Part shown: piece by piece, positions 2,542 through 61,644 of the stretch | How positions within the stretch are numbered: the stretch's first letter is position 1 | Layout of the letters: each line of letters starts with the position of its first letter | Sequence record: PQ724394.1 | Reading direction: 5' to 3' (one strand) | DNA: 64,000 nucleotides | Source: a phage | Notes under the pieces: model-generated | Seen by the model: only the letters and a program-made list of their open reading frames with translations | What the model was told of the DNA's origin: nothing | Database searches by the model: none | Program-made: the position numbers and the translations under genes

Positions 2542-3952
2542 AATAAACGTAATCGTAAATAATTCCAGCATCCAAAGCGGTTCTGTGAATAATTCTACCA
2601 TTACGAGATTCCTGTACATCAACCTCAGGATAATCGGCTACCATTTTTTGAAGGGTATAACGATGGAGATAATATTCACTATCAGGTTCGTCAGTTTTCC
2701 AGTCTTTGCCTTCAAGGGTCATTTTCTGAATTTCGTCCATAACCCACCAACCACACCAAATATAAGCTGAATTACGAACTGGTAGCGGATGAACGTAAGG
2801 TAGTTCGCCCTCTGGTTCAGGAGCTACTTTAGCCGTAATTGTTACATTACCTGTTTTTTTGACAGTCACAGGATTATAGTCGGTAGCCGAAACAACAGCA
2901 GAAACTTCAATAACCTGTGAACCTTCAGCGCTTGTGTCAATTACTAATGTATCCGTAGCACCCACAACAGGTGAACCATCTTTCTTCCAAGAATAAGCAA
3001 AAGTAGCACCACTAGGCGCACCGACTACCGTGGCTTTAAAAGAAGCCGGGATTCCTTCAGAGACAGTAATAGAAGCAGGCGTTAAATTAACAGAAACACC
3101 TGTCATAGTCTTTTTAGTAATTGTTACACTTCCTGTTTTGGTAACGGTTAAATCATTATAATCCGTACCTTTTAGGAGTACCGAAACTTCAATAGAGTAA
3201 GAACCTATTGTAGACGTATCAACAGCAAGAGTATTACTGCTTTCGCCCGGAATAATAGAACCATCTTTCTTCCAAGAATAAGTTGCATTTACGCCGGAAG
3301 GAGCACCAACTACATCCGCTTTAAACTGTGCAGATGAGTCTTTCTCTGTACTAATTGAGGCGGGCGTTAAAGTAACAGAAACACCTGATATAGTTTTCTT
3401 AACAAAAGTTACCGCAACACCTTTAGTAGCGGTACCCGGGTCATATTCAGGGGCGGTAACAGTAACTTCACAGTTCAACGTGTAATTTGCTTCTGCTGCT
3501 TCGGTTACAGTAATAGTTTTACCAGTTTGTCCAGAGATTACGCTGGTGTTACGTTTCCAAACATAAGCAATTGTTGCGCCTGCAGGTGCACCCGTCACGT
3601 TAGCAGTAACAACTTGAGATTGGCCAACTTCTTTAGAAACAGAAATAGGGTCTAAGGCCAAAGAAATAGACATGGTCTTATTAGCTACGGTAACTTCAAA
3701 AGTATCTTCAGCTACCTCAGGTTCGCCTTCAGCCGGAGTAGAAGTTGCTACTACTTTTAAAACTTTCTTACCTGCAGGTGAAGCACCTGTATATTTCAAA
3801 ACATTGGTTGCTTCTGGATTAGAAGCACCATCAATAGACCATACATATGTAATGGTTCCTTCTACAGCTGCACCTGTTGCGGTAGCAGTGTAGTTAGCAC
3901 TTTCGCCTATTTTAATAGACGCTGTGCCGGCTATACTTACAGTAAAAGCCAT
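2540..3952 (-). CDS. hoc: Highly immunogenic outer capsid protein Hoc (expanded, several Ig-like repeats)
   Basis: Repeated Ig-like modules (TYVWSIDG, AYVWKRN, TYSWKKDGS, AYSWKKDGS) and C-terminus matching T4 Hoc as I recall it (PEPEGELPYVHPLP...WCGWWVMDEIQKM...YPEVDVQESRNG). Confidence 0.8.
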   Translation of the reverse strand: MAFTVSIAGTASIKIGESANYTATATGAAVEGTITYVWSIDGASNPEATNVLKYTGASPAGKKVLKVVATSTPAEGEPEVAEDTFEVTVANKTMSISLALDPISVSKEVGQSQVVTANVTGAPAGATIAYVWKRNTSVISGQTGKTITVTEAAEANYTLNCEVTVTAPEYDPGTATKGVAVTFVKKTISGVSVTLTPASISTEKDSSAQFKADVVGAPSGVNATYSWKKDGSIIPGESSNTLAVDTSTIGSYSIEVSVLLKGTDYNDLTVTKTGSVTITKKTMTGVSVNLTPASITVSEGIPASFKATVVGAPSGATFAYSWKKDGSPVVGATDTLVIDTSAEGSQVIEVSAVVSATDYNPVTVKKTGNVTITAKVAPEPEGELPYVHPLPVRNSAYIWCGWWVMDEIQKMTLEGKDWKTDEPDSEYYLHRYTLQKMVADYPEVDVQESRNGRIIHRTALDAGIIYDYVY

Positions 3953-22895: not shown

Positions 22896-23261
22896 TTAGA
22901 TATCAAATTCATTCAGAACTACATCAAAGATTGCTTCCAGGTGTTCAGGTTTAGCACGGTTGCTCAGGATGTGACGAATCCAGGTTTTAACCAGAAGCTT
23001 ACGATTATCACCGTTCCAGCAAGGATGGGTACCTAAATCACGTTGACGGAAATCATCATCCAAAGCGATTTTAAAAGTAGAACCTTCCATAGTGATTGAA
23101 ACCGTGATACCATTTTCAAAGCGCATATAAACGTAGTTAGGAGTCATGCACTGTTCGATTTCGCACACTGTGCTGTTGTTGTGTTTCCACAGGCAAATAA
23201 CTTCAGAAGAACCAGCAATACCGTTAGAAACATATTTACGTTCGAAGTTGATGTAGTTCAT
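22896..23261 (-). CDS. Hypothetical early protein
   Basis: 121 aa; preceded by early promoter and a 40-nt leader identical to that of the next gene. Confidence 0.45.
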   Translation of the reverse strand: MNYINFERKYVSNGIAGSSEVICLWKHNNSTVCEIEQCMTPNYVYMRFENGITVSITMEGSTFKIALDDDFRQRDLGTHPCWNGDNRKLLVKTWIRHILSNRAKPEHLEAIFDVVLNEFDI

Positions 23262-23302: not shown

Positions 23303-23331
23303 ATAATAACACAACCTGTACCAAAGTAAAC
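23303..23331 (-). promoter_or_regulatory. T4-type early promoter embedded in a palindrome
   Basis: Minus strand GTTTAC-N17-TATTAT; inverted repeat ggtacagg/cctgtacc (23294-23321) flanks the -10. Confidence 0.55.
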
Positions 23332-30227: not shown

Positions 30228-30715
30228 TTGGTAATAATCTCGATGATGTCATCACGTGACAGGGAGTTGATAAGAACCGTTTTAGGGTTTTCACACTGGA
30301 TTTTATACGTTTCGAACATCACGCACAATTCTTCAGCGGTATGGTAAGGGCTCGAAATGCCAAGGCGATTAAACTTATCGCTTAATGGGTCGCAAATCAA
30401 ATAGAATGTGATTCCAGCGATTTTGACATTAGGCTGACTGATATTAATGAATACCTCAGCATCATACTTGGAAAGGTTGTTTTGGAGAAACTCAACCATA
30501 GAGTTAACAGCTTCCGGCATGGCTTCACGCTTTTCTTCTGCATAACGGGTAGAGTATTCTTTTTGCTTAATTTTCTTTTTAGCATTTTTAGCTAAAGTAA
30601 CACGAAGATCGGTTAGGTACCCTACTGCACGAGAACCTTTAAAAACTTGGATACCGTCAGTAGAGTCACCAAAAGCTTTAACAACCATTTCGTTGGTAAT
30701 CATTTGCATATTCAT
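30215..30715 (-). CDS. alc: Putative Alc (host transcription unfolding/termination protein), positional
   Basis: 166 aa (T4 Alc 167 aa) located between the spanins and rnlA. Confidence 0.5.
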   Translation of the reverse strand: MNMQMITNEMVVKAFGDSTDGIQVFKGSRAVGYLTDLRVTLAKNAKKKIKQKEYSTRYAEEKREAMPEAVNSMVEFLQNNLSKYDAEVFINISQPNVKIAGITFYLICDPLSDKFNRLGISSPYHTAEELCVMFETYKIQCENPKTVLINSLSRDDIIEIITKCLN

Positions 30716-30773
30716 TTTGTTTTCTCCTCATTAGTTGGTAAGTCTATACTAACACATCATGAGGAGATGTAAA

Positions 30774-31922
30774 CTACTCTATCACAATTTCTTTCAAATA
30801 TTTTTCAGGGATTTGGGCCTTATGATTTTTCAAGAACACAGAGTTAATCTGGTCCACGACTGTATCATAATTAATACCGTCTACGTACGCCTGCATAAGA
30901 ATAGAGAACAGCCCTGGGAAGTCTTTGAGGATTAACTGACCGGTAACAGCGTAGTCTTTACGGTCACGACCCTTGAGCTGAGAATATGCTGCTTCTAACA
31001 AAGCCAAGGACTGTTCTAAGTAGTCTAAATGGATACGTTCAAATGCATTGATTTTCTCGATAGCAAATGAATCGGTGCTGAACAAACCTCGGAGGTCATC
31101 AGTTCCACCAGCCACTACAACTTCAAACAAACGTTCGTTATTGTTAATGGAATCTTTGGTATGATGCAGTGCGCTATACCAAGCGGTTTTGAGTTTAAAG
31201 AACGTGCCATCTTTAAGTACAAAGATAAAGCCTTCAATACCCTCTTGTTTACGGATATTGTCAACAAAATCACCTTCAGAGAGTTCATAGCTTTTAACCA
31301 AATGCTTACGCAGAGCGCCATCTTTAAACAGTTCAGCATAAGGGATATACTCACCCGTTTCGTTATTACGAACGTTCAGTAAGATAAGGTTTGTTTCTTG
31401 GTAAGCCAGCACAATACGGTTAGTAGGCGAAACATACTCGAGGTTGCATGTGTAGCCTGCTTTAGTAATTTCTTCTAAACGAGCAGCGAAGGCCTCGTTT
31501 TCAGGGAGTCGAAGGAAACGTAAAGAATCATGTACCATCGACGAATGGATAGAGCCTTTAGATTTAACAGAAAGATATTGTCTGTCCATGAAGGTAGAAA
31601 TCAAGGAACCATCTTCCTTAGCCATTACGAGGTCGATATTTTCTTGTGATAAATCTAAACCAATAGTCAACGGGTTTTCATCGAGATTAAAGAACTTTTG
31701 CATAGGACGAGCAGCGATACGTACCGGACCATTCTCGTCCATTTCAAACATAATGCCTCGGCACTCTAGTGCGCCGTCTTCCAACCAATCACTGTATGAT
31801 GCATAGTTATAACTAAAGATGCGATAGTTGACTCCTAGAGCACTCTGGAAGTCTTTAAAGAAGAACTTAGATTTAGTTGAGTTTTTAACCAAAGTCATCA
31901 AGTTATCATATAATTCAATCAT
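30774..31922 (-). CDS. rnlA: RNA ligase 1
   Basis: Matches T4 Rnl1 (YRIFSYNYASYSDWL…ALECRGIMFEM…KEDGSL with the ligase lysine motif). Confidence 0.8.
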   Translation of the reverse strand: MIELYDNLMTLVKNSTKSKFFFKDFQSALGVNYRIFSYNYASYSDWLEDGALECRGIMFEMDENGPVRIAARPMQKFFNLDENPLTIGLDLSQENIDLVMAKEDGSLISTFMDRQYLSVKSKGSIHSSMVHDSLRFLRLPENEAFAARLEEITKAGYTCNLEYVSPTNRIVLAYQETNLILLNVRNNETGEYIPYAELFKDGALRKHLVKSYELSEGDFVDNIRKQEGIEGFIFVLKDGTFFKLKTAWYSALHHTKDSINNNERLFEVVVAGGTDDLRGLFSTDSFAIEKINAFERIHLDYLEQSLALLEAAYSQLKGRDRKDYAVTGQLILKDFPGLFSILMQAYVDGINYDTVVDQINSVFLKNHKAQIPEKYLKEIVIE

Positions 31923-43124: not shown

Positions 43125-43191
43125 ATGAACCTCTGTCCAATTAGTGTAGAATGTTATTATATCATGGCCCTGGAAGAAGTAAACACTTTGC

Positions 43192-53812: not shown

Positions 53813-54084
53813 AAATTGGAGGTATACATCATTAGATAACGGTGTATATCTTCATACCCTTCATTAAATTGCTCAATAAGAGTATCACGTTCATCTTCAG
53901 TTAAAGACTTAAAGAGTTTATTAAAAGATAGGCCATTAAGTTCCTTTCCATGTTCATTACGAATACCTAACTCATTCAAAAAGGCAATAAACTCATCACG
54001 ACGTTGCATGATGTCTTCACAATCCGTTTTAATCAAAATGGAAACAATAGTAGCAATTTCGGAAACGATTTCAATTTTAGTCAT
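53809..54084 (-). CDS. asiA: Anti-sigma70 factor AsiA
   Basis: 91 aa; matches T4 AsiA (…EIATIVSILIK…FIAFLNELGI…DTLIEQFNEGYE…YLMMYT). Confidence 0.85.
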   Translation of the reverse strand: MTKIEIVSEIATIVSILIKTDCEDIMQRRDEFIAFLNELGIRNEHGKELNGLSFNKLFKSLTEDERDTLIEQFNEGYEDIHRYLMMYTSNF

Positions 54085-55169: not shown

Positions 55170-55525
55170 TTCACAATTACCTTATAGCCTTTAACTTTAG
55201 AAAATGATTGGATTTTGGAACCGGTTTCTATCAACATATCTTCATTAGAAGAAGATAGCATGATATCCACAATTTGGCCTTTACCGTATGGGTTGATAGA
55301 AACTTCTTCCTCGGCAATCATAGCTAAAAATCTATTTAACTGCATACCAAATTCAAGAGTCACTTCATGAATACGAAGGTTAAGCTGGTATACTTTCTTA
55401 ACACCGTTAACTAAGGAAGTCATTTCACCCCATGCATTACGTTGTTCTTCGCGAGGCTCTTCAATCAATTTAAGGGAATGGCCTTCGCCGTCCCAGTTAA
55501 GTTCCATCGGAATCATTTGAACCAT
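55166..55525 (-). CDS. Hypothetical early protein
   Basis: 119 aa ORF. Confidence 0.4.
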
Positions 55526-56527: not shown

Positions 56528-56556
56528 ATAGTATCATGTTTAAAGCAGAAGTAAAC
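56528..56556 (-). promoter_or_regulatory. T4-type early promoter for motA
   Basis: Minus strand GTTTAC-N17-TACTAT, about 35 nt upstream of motA ATG. Confidence 0.6.
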
Positions 56557-56594
56557 TTTATTAGAGCTCTTTTTCAAGAGCTCTAATAAAGTAC

Positions 56595-56910: not shown

Positions 56911-56940
56911 CTAAACCCAAAAAGGAACCCGAAGGTTCCT
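56911..56940 (-). terminator. Rho-independent terminator (cUUCGg hairpin plus U-run)
   Basis: Minus strand aggaacc-UUCG-gguuccu followed by UUUUUGGGUUU. Confidence 0.7.
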
Positions 56941-57044
56941 TACTTTTTAAAGTGAGCCGCTATTAGACCTATAGCTAAGCCCGTTGCCAGGCCTAGGATA
57001 ACAGCAAAGATACAGAGTAACAAGAACTCAACTCCAAGGCTCAT
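56940..57044 (-). CDS. Small membrane peptide (34 aa), hypothetical
   Basis: Own translation MSLGVEFLLLCIFAVILGLATGLAIGLIAAHFKK; ATGA overlap with gene 52 stop. Confidence 0.4.
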   Translation of the reverse strand: MSLGVEFLLLCIFAVILGLATGLAIGLIAAHFKK

Positions 57045-58420
57045 AGAGCCTCCAAATCTTTAATATACTCAGTTACAACATCAGTGGTTTTCCAGTATTG
57101 GTGCTCTTCCTTCTTAGCCTTAGCTTCGAGGGCCAATTTCTTGGCTTCGTCAGAGGTAATATGGAAAATATTCATTGCTACAAGTTTATCAGCATATTCG
57201 CCATAGACTTTGTTACTGGCCAATTCTTCGGTTAAAACCTTACGGGTCTTACCTTGGATAACCACTACGCCATCAATAACATCTTTAATGAATGTAGCTT
57301 TAGCCAGGGCCAGTTTGAAAGCTTCTTCGGTTTCGATGATTTTACCATCAATACGTTTTTGTACAAAGGTCTTACGGACCTCAACGAAATCACGAATCAG
57401 TTCAACTGCATCTTCGTAAACCTTAAGTTTACCTTTCTCATTAATAACGGTCAGGTTTTGCGAACGACGTTCGATTAACCCAAAGTCTTTCATGATTTTT
57501 TCGTGCTTCTTATTTTCTTCAGTAGGCAATTCATATTCTTTACGAATCTTAACCTTGAAGCCGAAACCATTCTCGTCACAGTCGTCATCATACGTGATAT
57601 ACCCTTTGTCTTCTAAAGGGTCCAGAACCTTGGCCACATACGTTTCACGGTCATATTTGTACGGGATTTCTGTGATATGCATTTGGGTTCGAGATGTGAA
57701 CTTATAGGTCCCACGAATCTCATAACTTCCAGGTTCAATCTCAACAACTTCACCACGGAATTCCGGATAAGCCACCTTAGGCTTGGTTACGCGTTTTTCT
57801 TGAAGAACCTGCAATACAGCTTTCTTAACAGAATCAAAACTATGAGGAAGGATATTAGTTGCATAACCAGTTGCAATACCGGAAATACCATTAAGAAGAA
57901 CAGTAGGAATAATAGGCAGATAAAAAGCTGGTGGCTTATGTTCGACATCCGCATGAACCGGAGCATATTCTGTATCCTTATAAACCTTTGCGAAATTAGT
58001 TCCAATTCGTGCAAAAATATAACGAGATGCCGCTGCTTTTTGAACCAAACGAGAACCAAAGTTACCTTGTCCATCTAACAGTGGGAAGTTGTTGTTCCAT
58101 GTGTTGGCCATCAAAGCCCCTGCTTCCTGAGCAGAACCTTCACCATGGTGGTATCCAAGGTCGGCTACACCACCTGCAATAGAAGCTAGTTTGTGGAATT
58201 TTTCTTTATTACCACGAGCCATATCAAGACAACGAGCAACTACAAAACGTTGTACAGGTTTAAAACCGTCAATCATATTTGGAATGGCGCGGTTTTCGAC
58301 AGTATACATTGCGTAAGCCAGCGCTTCGTTGTCGATGATGCTTTTTAAGTCACGACGAGTAAAAGCATCATCGTAAACATCTAAGGATTGTTTAAAAAGG
58401 GTATCAATTACATCAGCCAT
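57041..58420 (-). CDS. 52: DNA topoisomerase II medium subunit gp52
   Basis: Matches T4 gp52 (RDLKSIIDNEALAYAMYTVENRAIPNMIDGFKPVQR…); catalytic-Tyr region present. Confidence 0.85.
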   Translation of the reverse strand: MADVIDTLFKQSLDVYDDAFTRRDLKSIIDNEALAYAMYTVENRAIPNMIDGFKPVQRFVVARCLDMARGNKEKFHKLASIAGGVADLGYHHGEGSAQEAGALMANTWNNNFPLLDGQGNFGSRLVQKAAASRYIFARIGTNFAKVYKDTEYAPVHADVEHKPPAFYLPIIPTVLLNGISGIATGYATNILPHSFDSVKKAVLQVLQEKRVTKPKVAYPEFRGEVVEIEPGSYEIRGTYKFTSRTQMHITEIPYKYDRETYVAKVLDPLEDKGYITYDDDCDENGFGFKVKIRKEYELPTEENKKHEKIMKDFGLIERRSQNLTVINEKGKLKVYEDAVELIRDFVEVRKTFVQKRIDGKIIETEEAFKLALAKATFIKDVIDGVVVIQGKTRKVLTEELASNKVYGEYADKLVAMNIFHITSDEAKKLALEAKAKKEEHQYWKTTDVVTEYIKDLEAL

Positions 58421-58813: not shown

Positions 58814-59263
58814 TTAGTAAGCCTGCAGAACGAATTTGAAGTTATCGGCCAACATGCGGTTCATTTCTTCCAGAGTCTGAAGGTCGGAACTATGGTTGCG
58901 AGTGAAAGCCATTGCAATTTGACCTTTACCAAAGCCTGTGGTCAGTGGTTTCATTTTAGAAGCTGGCACATAAAGAACTTCGTACAGAACACCATTTACG
59001 GCCATGGTACGAGCTGATTGTGAACGTTTCTTACGAATGTTAGCCACGATACCATCAAGACCTTGAGCTGAACGTTGGTTGCCGACATAAAAACGAGCGG
59101 CTACGACACGAGAATCTGCTTCACCTTTAACAAAGAAGTAGAAGCCGGGCTGAGCCGAGATTTCTTTAGAAGGCTTACCATTTTGGTATTCGCCATTCTT
59201 AACATAAGCAACAGTAGTAGCACCAGCAGACAGAACGTTACCGCGAGTCATATAAGTATTCAT
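58814..59263 (-). CDS. ndd: Nucleoid disruption protein Ndd
   Basis: 149 aa; C-terminal half (…[10 protein letters not shown]…[16 protein letters not shown]…[20 protein letters not shown]) matches T4 Ndd as recalled. Confidence 0.7.
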
Positions 59264-59340
59264 ATCAATTTCCTCAGTAGATTAATGTTTTGTTATCCAG
59301 TCAACGAGAACCATTATAACATGATTCTCGAGGTTGTAAA

Positions 59341-59685
59341 CTATTTTTGTAGCTGTTCTAAAATAAATCCGCTTGTATAAAAGGAAGCATTATAAACCTT
59401 ATTCAGCGGGTTCAAAGCACGTCCATAGGTATCACGTAATTCTTCGATAACATTTTCGTAGCTCACATAGTAAGCACTACGATAGTCAGGGTCCATGCTC
59501 ATACGGAATTTGATGAATCGATAAAACCCTGTATCCGGGTCTTGAACGAAAACGAAATCCGCACTTGCCATAGTTTTTGAATCTAACCCAGTAACCAGTT
59601 CTTGATTAAAGGCTGCCAATGCCTCTTTAAGACTGAGTTGCTCAAAGAACATAACCTTAGCATTACCAAAAAATACTTTAGACAT
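59341..59685 (-). CDS. Hypothetical early protein
   Basis: 114 aa ORF. Confidence 0.4.
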   Translation of the reverse strand: MSKVFFGNAKVMFFEQLSLKEALAAFNQELVTGLDSKTMASADFVFVQDPDTGFYRFIKFRMSMDPDYRSAYYVSYENVIEELRDTYGRALNPLNKVYNASFYTSGFILEQLQK

Positions 59686-59699
59686 AATATTTTCCTCAA

Positions 59700-59924
59700 T
59701 TATTCAGAGTCGACTTCTTCTGATAATTCCATCAGTTCATCAACCGTGAAACACTCTGTATTATTTTCAATAGCAAAACGCTTTTGATAAAAAGGATAAT
59801 CCAAACAGTTTTCAGTACGAATAGGCCGCTCGCTATTATCCATTAAAGGAGAAATACGAATCAATTGTTGACCATTACCTAAGACAAATTTTTCACCAAC
59901 TGCGATATCTTTAAAAAGTTTCAT
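59700..59924 (-). CDS. Hypothetical early protein
   Basis: Start taken at the internal ATG with SD. Confidence 0.35.
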   Translation of the reverse strand: MKLFKDIAVGEKFVLGNGQQLIRISPLMDNSERPIRTENCLDYPFYQKRFAIENNTECFTVDELMELSEEVDSE

Positions 59925-59940
59925 AATATTTTCCTCGGAA

Positions 59941-60087
59941 TTAAAGAACTTCTTCAATTTGGATGTATTCGCTATATCCTTCCTCGATGAGGATATCACG
60001 GGCGCAGTCAGCGCTGATATAAAAATTAAAACTAACGGTAGTAATCACTTTACCATGCAACTTTACTTTATAAATTCGATTACCCAT
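59941..60087 (-). CDS. Hypothetical small early protein
   Basis: Start taken at ATG 60087 with SD gagga. Confidence 0.35.
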   Translation of the reverse strand: MGNRIYKVKLHGKVITTVSFNFYISADCARDILIEEGYSEYIQIEEVL

Positions 60088-60097
60088 AATATTTTCC

Positions 60098-60208
60098 TCA
60101 GAAGTTAAAGAATACACGTACATGGTCAATCATAAAAACTATTGGGAAAATGCTCAATACTACTAACAACACAAACATATTCCAAATTGCTTTAAGTAAG
60201 TTTTTCAT
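60098..60208 (-). CDS. Small hydrophobic peptide (36 aa), hypothetical
   Basis: Own translation MKNLLKAIWNMFVLLVVLSIFPIVFMIDHVRVFFNF; SD ggag and early promoter directly upstream. Confidence 0.35.
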   Translation of the reverse strand: MKNLLKAIWNMFVLLVVLSIFPIVFMIDHVRVFFNF

Positions 60209-60234
60209 AATCATCTCCATTAGTTGATAGGTCT

Positions 60235-60263
60235 ATAATATCATGTCTAATGGAGATGTAAAC
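60235..60263 (-). promoter_or_regulatory. T4-type early promoter whose spacer is complementary to the downstream RBS/start region
   Basis: Minus strand GTTTAC-N17-TATTAT; 12-bp inverted repeat catctccattag (60212-60223) / ctaatggagatg (60247-60258). Confidence 0.55.
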
Positions 60264-60488
60264 TGATTTATCGTTTTTCGTAGTATTCTATTATACCACC
60301 GTAAGTTCTTTGGGCATTTAAAGCCTGGCACTCAAAAATGTAATCGCGCATAACTAACCAGTTACCGAACTTATCTTTACCAAATTTATGTATATACATA
60401 AATCCTCATTATAAAATTATAATTAAACTAAAACATATACAAATAAATGGAATACAAGTCATCCAAATAAAGCACCAGGTTTTGCTAC

Positions 60489-60755
60489 TCAAAATACAAC
60501 CTCTTTTATCTCAATCAAACCACGGTGCAATGCAGTGCGGAGGTCGTAAAGAATATCTATACCATCAACATTATCCAGCTTGCCATCAATAAGCTTTTTT
60601 AAATCTTCCTTTGATGCAATCAACGGGCGAAGAAATTTACATTCAGAAAGAGATAACTCTGTAGTAACATTATCACCTTCACCTGATGCATCATACATAG
60701 CGGCAACAACCATACCCGTAACTTTGTGTTTAGCGTAATATAATTTGATATCCAT
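60489..60755 (-). CDS. Hypothetical early protein
   Basis: Start at ATG 60755 (MDIKLYYAKHK) downstream of an early promoter. Confidence 0.4.
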   Translation of the reverse strand: MDIKLYYAKHKVTGMVVAAMYDASGEGDNVTTELSLSECKFLRPLIASKEDLKKLIDGKLDNVDGIDILYDLRTALHRGLIEIKEVVF

Positions 60756-60783
60756 TTTGTTCTCCTCATTAGTTGATAGGAAG

Positions 60784-60813
60784 ATAGTAACACCATCCAT
60801 GGCGTATGTAAAC
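60784..60813 (-). promoter_or_regulatory. T4-type early promoter
   Basis: Minus strand GTTTAC-N18-TACTAT. Confidence 0.5.
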
Positions 60814-60827
60814 ACTTATTTTAAAAA

Positions 60828-61385
60828 TTATAAGGCGAGATACCAGCCGTTGTAATTACTCTTACGGACTAGCTTTTTGATGGATTCTCTGTCACCAGAG
60901 AACTTAGGAGTGAACAGGACGTCGCCTGCCTCATTTACTGAAGTGTCGAATATAATTATACAATCTGCAACTTTATGATTCAAGAGCGGCCCCAGGTTAA
61001 TCCCTGTTCCATAAGGGAAGTCACCCGAGTATCCTGTAGTGCAGGAAATCCACTTAGAATCAGATTGGTGGGTCTTGACCTCTACACGTAGTCCACAGTA
61101 CATAGGATGGGCTAAAACATCCCAGGCGTAGGTATAAGGGTCGTCATGGTCTTCCAGACCACTGTTGACGTATCCTTTCAACCAATCAGCAACCATGTAC
61201 TCTGCATACGTCGCAATAACACACCTAGTCAATACTTCTTTCTTATCTTGGGATGGGTCTTGGCTTAAGGAATATAATACGGTATCCTTAATCTTGACCT
61301 TCATTTCACCCGTTAAATCAGATGTCTTCAGGGTAAATGTCGGCATCTTCGACAGTCGAACTAGTCCCGGATTTGACGGATTCAT
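60828..61385 (-). CDS. denB: Putative endonuclease IV DenB (positional; start uncertain)
   Basis: 185 aa from the MNPSNPG Met, equal to T4 DenB length; located between ndd block and rIIB. Confidence 0.5.
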   Translation of the reverse strand: MNPSNPGLVRLSKMPTFTLKTSDLTGEMKVKIKDTVLYSLSQDPSQDKKEVLTRCVIATYAEYMVADWLKGYVNSGLEDHDDPYTYAWDVLAHPMYCGLRVEVKTHQSDSKWISCTTGYSGDFPYGTGINLGPLLNHKVADCIIIFDTSVNEAGDVLFTPKFSGDRESIKKLVRKSNYNGWYLAL

Positions 61386-61644
61386 AATCACCACCAATAT
61401 ACAATTCTTCGACGTGAACATTACCAAAATAGATACGAGAGTTTTCACTCAATTTACTGTGGTCTAATTTTTTAAGGTTTTCAACTGAATCGAAAATCAC
61501 GTCTGTTGCAAAAAGATGGCCTGTAGCTTTATCAGATTTGATTACATCTACACAATAAACCTTATCGGCCACATGATTACCTTGGAGATAACTATCTTTG
61601 ATATCTTCGTCGCCGACGTTCATGTAATTAATCATTTTACTCAC
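61318..61644 (-). CDS. Hypothetical early protein
   Basis: 108 aa ORF. Confidence 0.4.
   Translation of the reverse strand: MSKMINYMNVGDEDIKDSYLQGNHVADKVYCVDVIKSDKATGHLFATDVIFDSVENLKKLDHSKLSENSRIYFGNVHVEELYIGGDYESVKSGTSSTVEDADIYPEDI

Follow-up and report, generated by a model that had tools for sequence, protein, structure and literature searches.

A putative self-insulating early promoter cassette at ndd.4 of a T4-type phage

Introduction

The window considered here, a 64,000-nt stretch of DNA (PQ724394.1), belongs to a T4-type phage in the JS98/JS10 group (Dhakavirus). In its variable ndd-denB region, where the local genes are on the minus strand, an early promoter precedes a homologue of the T4 gene ndd.4, and part of this promoter is complementary to the Shine-Dalgarno (SD) sequence of that gene. 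The locus raises the question of what is achieved when the spacer of a promoter can pair with the driven gene's ribosome binding site. The initial annotation proposed that translation is gated by the origin of the transcript. This interpretation is supported in silico and is broader in scope than first proposed. The reading that we consider probable, from modelled RNA folding and comparison with relatives, is a self-insulating early promoter cassette, in which the spacer would double as the anti-SD of the ndd.4 homologue.

Promoter and inverted repeat at ndd.4

The element is composed of an early promoter, a perfect inverted repeat, and the translation start of a small gene. On the plus strand, the repeat reads CATCTCCATTAG at 60212-60223 and CTAATGGAGATG at 60247-60258. 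Each arm is 12 nt, complementarity is 100%, and the arms are separated by 23 nt; the repeat joining spacer and downstream leader is thus present where the initial annotation had placed it. On the minus strand, the order is GTTTAC(60263-60258)-ATCTCCATTAGACATGA (N17 spacer)-TATTAT(60240-60235)-AGACCTATCAA-CTAATGGAGATG-ATT-ATG. The 5' arm (60258-60247) is promoter spacer and shares the final base of GTTTAC. The features of the element, all on the minus strand, are as follows.

60258..60263, minus strand: -35 element GTTTAC of a T4-type early promoter (TTTACA = 60262-60257), from the promoter scan; the motif is found in ~14 minus-strand cassettes
60247..60258, minus strand: 5' arm (anti-SD) CATCTCCATTAG within the promoter spacer, transcribed only by polymerase from upstream; from the repeat search and minimum-energy fold
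60235..60240, minus strand: -10 element TATTAT, preceded by TG (extended -10) and located in the hairpin loop; from the sequence and promoter scan
60224..60234, minus strand: initially transcribed region AGACCTATCAA, part of the leader CCTATCAACTAATG common to several cassettes; predicted start ~60228
60212..60223, minus strand: 3' arm CTAATGGAGATG with the SD GGAG (60218-60215); from the repeat search and opening cost
60098..60208, minus strand: ndd.4 homologue encoding a 36-aa hydrophobic protein (ATG 60208-60206, stop 60100-60098); from PHROG 3098 and tblastn

The early promoter that had been claimed upstream of the 36-aa open reading frame (ORF) is found as GTTTAC-N17-TATTAT. The promoter scan reports it as TTTACA-16-TATTAT, with 10/12 consensus matches and the TG extension. 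It fits the T4/PST early consensus TTTACW-N17-TAYWAT, and its position is constant across four genera. A late or middle promoter within the hairpin is ruled out, as there is no TATAAATA and no MotA box. The RefSeq T4 record has no promoter annotated at ndd.4.

The transcription start, ~60228, is placed by the usual ~7 nt spacing after the -10 box. This predicted start falls between the arms, so transcripts from the element's own promoter would lack the 5' arm, as had been claimed. The 3' arm had been described as covering both the SD and the start codon; the SD (GGAG) does lie within it, but the ATG at 60208-60206 falls 3 nt 3' of the arm. The terminator scan lists no terminator-like site between the upstream cassette at 60812 and 60263. 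A search of 59000-61500 with Rfam covariance models gave a single chance-level match (E = 0.64), away from the element.

Folding energetics and chance controls

The ndd.4 hairpin is the predicted minimum-energy structure of the read-through RNA, with the SD inside. Opening the segment from SD-14 to AUG+5 is predicted to cost 16.4-16.9 kcal/mol when 40-300 nt of upstream RNA are present, versus 2.0 kcal/mol when the RNA begins at the predicted start. This comparison of the two forms bears out the proposal that read-through RNA would sequester the SD. As a gating measure, the opening cost of RNA starting at -22 was subtracted from that of RNA starting at -82. Among the 128 SD-ATG starts of the window, ndd.4 ranks first by this measure, at 14.1 kcal/mol (median 1.1, 95th percentile 5.6).

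Perfect 12-mer inverted repeats with a loop of 3-60 nt occur at 5 loci in the window, versus 0.33 expected per shuffled window; at least one is held by 22% of shuffled windows. Shuffling of the spacer is more discriminating for this element. No shuffle in 3000 was as stable as the observed spacer-leader duplex of -19.2 kcal/mol (shuffle mean -5.8, standard deviation 2.2), and 0/3000 were as good in three lineages. Over all cassettes of the window, the spacer pairs with its own leader at a median of -10.6 kcal/mol, versus -7.6 kcal/mol with the leaders of other cassettes (p = 0.005).

Conservation across four genera

Cassettes of ndd.4 were gathered from GenBank phages and IMG/VR contigs by searches anchored in the coding region only. 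The comparative set is composed of 27 distinct sequences from four genera. With a second coding-region pattern, 5/27 loci were ndd.4, and the remainder were mostly unrelated signal-peptide genes. Pairing between promoter sequence and the SD is predicted for the read-through RNA of all four genera, with stems that differ. The arms and the predicted costs of opening the start region are listed by genus.

Dhakavirus: CATCTCCATTAG / CTAATGGAGATG; 11-18 kcal/mol on read-through RNA, ~2 on the own transcript (one sequence 5.8)
Gaprivervirus: CATCTCC(A/G)GTGG / CTACTGGAGATG; 13-18 kcal/mol on read-through RNA, 2-2.7 on the own transcript
Tequatrovirus (T4, T2, RB14, PP01): CTGTTCYTCYGTGGT / ACTAYGGAGGAACAG, 15 pairs, register shifted by ~5 nt; 16-18 kcal/mol on read-through RNA, ~1 on the own transcript
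Kanagawavirus: weaker, interrupted stem with the -35 region; 6-10 kcal/mol on read-through RNA, 2.5-2.9 on the own transcript

Relative to the Dhakavirus stem, that of Gaprivervirus has a single compensatory change, U-A to G-C, and has A-U replaced by G.U at two positions. In both alignable groups, 98% of the cells are paired, versus 28-61% in slid registers. The changes within these groups are one compensatory U-A to G-C and six one-sided changes, all of which give G.U. Every wobble pair is G.U on the mRNA-sense strand, where the complement would give A.C, and this points to a function of the sense strand at the RNA level. A DNA cruciform or an antisense RNA is disfavoured for the same reason.

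Calibration on the T4 genome

The same gating measure was run on the 275 starts of the complete T4 genome (NC_000866). It recovers most of the known or proposed gated genes of T4 and places ndd.4 above them. The genes concerned are listed with rank, predicted gating energy, and their status in the review PMC3014915.

alc: rank 1/275, 17.7 kcal/mol; gating not described
ndd.4: rank 2/275, 15.4 kcal/mol; gating not described
gene 49: rank 5/275, 13.4 kcal/mol; inhibitory structure known
I-TevII: rank 6/275, 12.8 kcal/mol; gating predicted
e: rank 9/275, 10.8 kcal/mol; gating demonstrated
segB: rank 14/275, 9.7 kcal/mol; gating implicated
I-TevI: rank 15/275, 9.6 kcal/mol; gating demonstrated

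High values are enriched at early promoters. A difference of at least 9.5 kcal/mol is found at 8/31 early-promoter-proximal starts of T4 versus 7/244 others (Fisher p = 4e-5), and five of these 7 are known or proposed late-promoter cases. In the eight early-proximal genes, the spacer is predicted to pair with the SD on read-through RNA. Their starts in NC_000866 are 136278 (alc), 166749 (ndd.4), 62740 (regB, rank 3/275), 53885 (nrdC.8), 123032 (alt.-3), 13130 (modB), 130253 (30.8), and 70623 (e.8). ModB and RegB are early proteins by T4 proteomics (PMC9697503).

Copies of some of these cassettes occur at more than one locus. The T4 nrdC.8 cassette (~53885-53960) is nearly identical, in both arms, to the ndd.4 cassette of one T4-like IMG/VR contig, a match that suggests exchange of whole cassettes between distant loci. 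The T4 alt.-3 cassette is nearly identical to that of alc.

Proposed mechanism

Polymerase starting at the ndd.4 promoter would begin ~7 nt past the -10 element, between the arms, and produce a leader of ~20 nt that leaves the SD unpaired. Translation of Ndd.4 would then take place during the immediate-early burst. Where polymerase comes from promoters farther upstream, the spacer would be transcribed as well, and upon emergence of the SD 35 nt downstream the two would pair on the long RNA in a 12-bp hairpin (about -19 kcal/mol). Extension of T4 prereplicative transcripts from upstream early and middle promoters is well documented (PMC2988021). On such longer transcripts, ndd.4 would be translationally silent while the downstream genes are still transcribed and expressed. 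As a net result, both the amount and the timing of this small membrane protein's synthesis would depend on its own promoter.

For ndd.4, we infer how active the promoter is, where transcription starts, whether and how much read-through RNA is made, and how strongly translation is affected. The temporal control of Ndd.4 that had been proposed would presumably follow from this scheme, and the biological reason for gating may be that the membrane peptide is possibly harmful.

The ndd.4 gene and its upstream neighbour

The 36-aa ORF matches PHROG 3098 (E = 2.8e-21). A tblastn search with its protein finds 595 phage records, among them T4 ndd.4 at 61% identity, and the homologues in JS10, PP01, and RB14 are annotated as ndd.4 and predicted to be in the inner membrane. 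These matches identify the ORF as a genuine homologue of T4 Ndd.4.

Public annotations place the start of ndd.4 at an upstream in-frame ATG within the stem, which gives 42 aa in the T4 RefSeq record and 40 aa in JS10. The in-frame ATGs within the arm are not conserved, the position being ACG in RB14, PP01, and T2 and CTG in Gaprivervirus (sites compared: window 60206-60220; T4 NC_000866 166749-166764; JS10 3299-3421). Because the later ATG has proper SD spacing and the in-stem ATG is not conserved, Ndd.4 is probably 36-37 aa in length.

The gene directly upstream of the element is also small.

60268..60399, minus strand: upstream 43-aa ORF from the ORF list, with its stop codon (60270-60268) 4 nt ahead of GTTTAC

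Transcripts that cross this ORF include the 5' arm. It is otherwise found only in phage Esco_phi_B-01. In other Dhaka- and Gapriverviruses, the cassette is abutted by a small hydrophobic ORF, the counterpart of the 27-aa ORF at 60409-60492 of the window. The right junction of the inserted 43-aa ORF, which has an SD and lacks a cassette of its own, is ATAAATCAG, directly 5' of the -35 box.

Cassettes of the promoter-early stem-loop type

Promoter-early stem-loop (PeSL) cassettes of T4-type phages consist of a promoter, a stem-loop, an SD, and an ATG, recur as a unit, and mediate gene shuffling, and a PeSL-associated swap has been published for ndd.4/.5 (PMC2839356, PMC4122927). Their stem-loop is read as a terminator or attenuator and as a recombination site, and in PST/T4 the stem is placed just upstream of the promoter (PMC2839356, PMC4122927). 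By composition, the ndd.4 element is a PeSL-type cassette. It has a sigma70-like early promoter, an AT-rich upstream region, a 12-bp stem-loop, and a small gene's SD and ATG. It is a repeated unit in the genome and sits at a replacement junction: the homology that most relatives share with this phage begins precisely at the cassette's 5' edge, and the gene upstream varies by phage.

The window contains ~14 minus-strand cassettes of the form GTTTAC(A/T)-N16/17-TAnnAT, often with the common leader CCTATCAAC. The leader motif CCTATCAACTAATG is repeated at 60767-60780 and, with 2 mismatches, at 30729-30742, and is found in T4 cassettes too. A leader segment (C)CTATCAAC(T)A lies between start and SD at 60218-60231, 60767-60780, and 30729-30742 of the window and in T4 early cassettes. 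This segment may serve cassette recombination as a homology patch, or it may be a leader element with a function.

The cassettes of the window are of three types, with a terminator hairpin upstream of the -35 element, a stem around the -10 element, or a stem whose 3' arm is the SD. The last type is found at ndd.4 (60262), at the alc homologue (30773), and possibly at 43183. The cassette of the alc homologue is laid out as follows.

30713..30774, minus strand: alc homologue cassette, with GTTTACA, spacer arm TCTCCTCAT 30767-30759, -10 TAGTAT 30751-30746, SD arm ATGAGGAGA 30731-30723, and ATG 30715-30713

The protein of this gene matches PHROG 1253, inhibitor of host transcription (E = 4e-71). 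Its predicted opening costs are 10.5 versus 0.6 kcal/mol, and the difference of 10.4 kcal/mol ranks 2/128 in the window. The arms of T4 alc differ from those of the window homologue.

The other two types are represented elsewhere on the minus strand. Classical terminator-like hairpins at 56922-56941 and 56555-56592 are upstream of or abut the -35 elements GTTTACA 56899 and GTTTACT 56556. These two cassettes have the canonical terminator-plus-promoter PeSL layout, unlike the ndd.4 cassette. In the cassettes at 23330, 27041, 29482, 38553, 38841, and 59340, the spacer pairs with sequence just past the -10 box. Their stems enclose the -10 element and end near +1, leaving the SD free, and have no U-run. 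One example is the perfect 12-bp stem TTTGGTACAGGT / ACCTGTACCAAA.

Two further inverted repeats were observed in the window. The repeat at 58328-58378 is 18 nt and 89% complementary, has a 13-bp perfect core, begins with GTTTAC on the minus strand, and is apparently in coding sequence. A perfect 12-mer pair with a 56-nt loop lies within 55224-55303.

Weighing the explanations

Several points weigh against a self-insulating cassette at ndd.4. Within-group covariation is thin, with two helix-end mismatches beside the one compensatory pair and the six one-sided changes. The alignment shuffle controls are marginal for Dhaka/Gapriver (4/500) and uninformative for the T4 group; they are weak because the distinct sequences are few. 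The Kanagawavirus stems are weak (P = 0.05), and the member KLB31 is nearly without a stem. The gating measure misses soc, a known gated gene, at rank 173/275, probably because both of its arms are at most 22 nt from the AUG. About three quarters of early cassettes are without SD occlusion, so occlusion is not a general requirement of early promoters. Since cassettes are copied between loci, conservation across loci is not independent evidence and may partly reflect inheritance of the unit. At ndd.4 itself, the stop codon of the 43-aa ORF is only 9 nt ahead of the 5' arm. A ribosome terminating there could briefly melt the lowest part of the stem, permitting a degree of coupled initiation. The argument for gating appears to lean more on the comparison between genera and the calibration on known cases than on within-group covariation. 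The retention of one functional placement by unrelated arm sequences in different genera would likewise be a stronger argument than the shuffle controls.

The stem-loop could instead be the 'SL' of a PeSL cassette, acting as a terminator or attenuator of upstream transcription and/or as a recombination homology patch, with the overlap of the SD incidental. The element matches PeSL composition and is repeated in a hyperplastic region, and the homology boundary at its 5' edge, next to a variable gene, fits this explanation. Fig. 6A of PMC4122927 deals with the ndd.4/.5 swap, T4 loci share whole cassettes, and the stems of RB49 and phi1 are often between -35 and -10, one having been shown to terminate transcription (PMC2839356). 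By its sequence features, an intrinsic terminator is nonetheless rejected at ndd.4. The stem has 5/12 G-C pairs and a 23-nt loop, is followed by AUUAUGAAAAAC and not by a U-run, and is absent from the terminator scan, which does list the hairpins at 56941 and 56592. The 3' arm tracks the SD of each gene and changes along with it, which a terminator or recombination patch would not need. Most other cassettes of the window put their 3' arm at ~+1, off the SD, so the SD placement in the strongest cases is specific. A recombination role would be compatible with translational gating, and we regard this explanation, with the overlap incidental, as unlikely.

Another function for the hairpin would be to shield the SD from RegB. 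In early mRNAs, the GGAG of the SD is a cleavage site of RegB, and sites within RNA secondary structure are protected (PMC3014915). Shielding on the long polycistronic RNA, and protection from the ensuing decay, would stabilise the ndd, stp, and gene 52 RNA, with silencing of ndd.4 as a side effect. GGAG is in the 3' arm in all lineages, and the SD of T4 regB, a known RegB target, is in a similar hairpin. Strong RegB-type sites at SDs are enriched in the window, with 4 perfect matches to GGAGRAYARAA versus 0.45 expected. None of the four is at ndd.4, whose SD, GGAGATGATTA, fits this consensus poorly, and the regB gene of this phage would fall outside the window. Shielding would also act together with occlusion and not instead of it. 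RegB protection may be an extra effect alongside gating; as the main role of the hairpin it seems distinctly improbable. The four perfect matches are on the minus strand at 23261, 23704, 38498, and 60755. At least three (23261, 38498, and 60755) are the SDs of early cassettes, one of them the cassette at 60812 just upstream of ndd.4.

The repeat could also be functionless, a product of chance, of templated (quasipalindrome) mutation, or of cassette duplication that brings a pyrimidine-rich spacer opposite a purine-rich SD. In T4, imperfect palindromes are known to undergo templated correction. Shuffled 64-kb sequences hold perfect 12-mer repeats often enough for one to arise by chance, and the formal covariation within groups is modest. 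Against this, the observed energy was never reached by spacer shuffles in three lineages, and stems of different register are at one functional position in four genera. The ranks of 1/128 in the window and 2/275 in T4 come from scans that recover known gated genes, and the design is enriched at early promoters at the significance given above. The spacers of non-occluding cassettes are unrelated and are not pyrimidine-rich, and a pyrimidine-rich spacer as a general promoter feature is ruled out on these grounds. We give a functionless repeat very little credence. A self-insulating promoter is the explanation that we prefer.

Implications

If the reading is extended beyond ndd.4, the early promoters of T4-type phages may include a self-insulating class that has gone unrecognised, with the spacer as the anti-SD of the driven gene. 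We put this forward tentatively and with more doubt than belief. The class would include about a quarter of T4 early-promoter-proximal genes, the eight named above. Host-takeover proteins would be confined to the first promoter-proximal burst and be blind to read-through, which is typically heavy in T4 early regions. Alc, RegB, and ModB are harmful to the cell. Since both arms are within a mobile PeSL cassette, insulation would travel with the cassette in gene shuffling.

If true, a second temporal logic would be added to a classic T4 mechanism: the hairpin with an internal promoter, which holds lysozyme back until late infection, would also limit a set of immediate-early proteins to a brief pulse, with no protein factor needed. 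Decoupling of mRNA and protein has been reported from T4 omics (PMC9697503), and gating of this kind would help to account for it. The stem-loops of at least some PeSL cassettes would gain a concrete function other than termination, and the annotated start codons of ndd.4 would be corrected. For phage and synthetic-biology design, the cassette would be a compact, portable part similar to the sigma54 insulators, a promoter immune at the level of translation to upstream transcription.

Comparison with known systems

In the literature on ndd.4 and on early-promoter/RBS (ribosome binding site) hairpins, nothing specific was found beyond the PeSL papers and two 2010 reviews. Early-promoter hairpins of the ndd.4 kind are not described in those reviews or the PeSL papers; the 2003 T4 genome review (PMC150520) and the 1994 T4 book are outside this comparison, and a prior mention is possible. 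The words 'translation' and 'ribosome' occur 0 times in PMC2839356.

The ndd.4 element and the PeSL cassettes have the same parts list, the AT-rich upstream region, the repetition, and the location in hyperplastic regions at indel or replacement junctions. The ndd.4 stem differs in that it links the spacer to the SD, has no terminator features, and varies together with the SD. RegB target sites likewise have a GGAG SD in an early leader, as ndd.4 does, but the extended consensus of strong sites is absent from ndd.4.

Sigma54 promoters offer a bacterial parallel. Short CT-rich anti-SD motifs upstream of their transcription start silence the downstream gene on read-through RNA only (bioRxiv 10.1101/086108). 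As at ndd.4, the anti-SD is borne by the promoter upstream of the start and is complementary to the downstream SD. The sigma54 insulators are motifs of 3-5 nt with additive weak effects, whereas ndd.4 has a sigma70-type phage early promoter and, with its relatives, a continuous helix of 12-15 bp.

The closest comparison is with the hairpin-gated genes of T4, to which the initial annotation had likened the element. In e, soc, 49, and I-TevI, a helix sequesters the SD when transcription starts at a distal promoter, and RNA from an internal promoter lacks the 5' arm and is translatable (PMC3014915). I-TevII/III, segB, and Aeh1 mobE are also counted with this group, and the same combination of SD helix and promoter within the structure is predicted at ndd.4. 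The predicted gating energy of ndd.4, 14-15 kcal/mol, is comparable to or stronger than the 9.6-13.4 kcal/mol of T4 49, e, and I-TevI. The likeness holds for the helix and the internal promoter; it does not extend to the promoter class. T4 e, soc, 49, and I-TevI are reported to have a late promoter (gp55-type, TATAAATA) and delayed translation, whereas the ndd.4 promoter is of the sigma70 early type. The temporal logic would therefore be reversed, on at once and off in longer transcripts. Unlike the known gated genes of T4, ndd.4 also has as its anti-SD the promoter's own -35/-10 spacer. The in silico results support an element that would work like the e/soc/49/I-TevI family without being a strict member of it, a variant with an early promoter.

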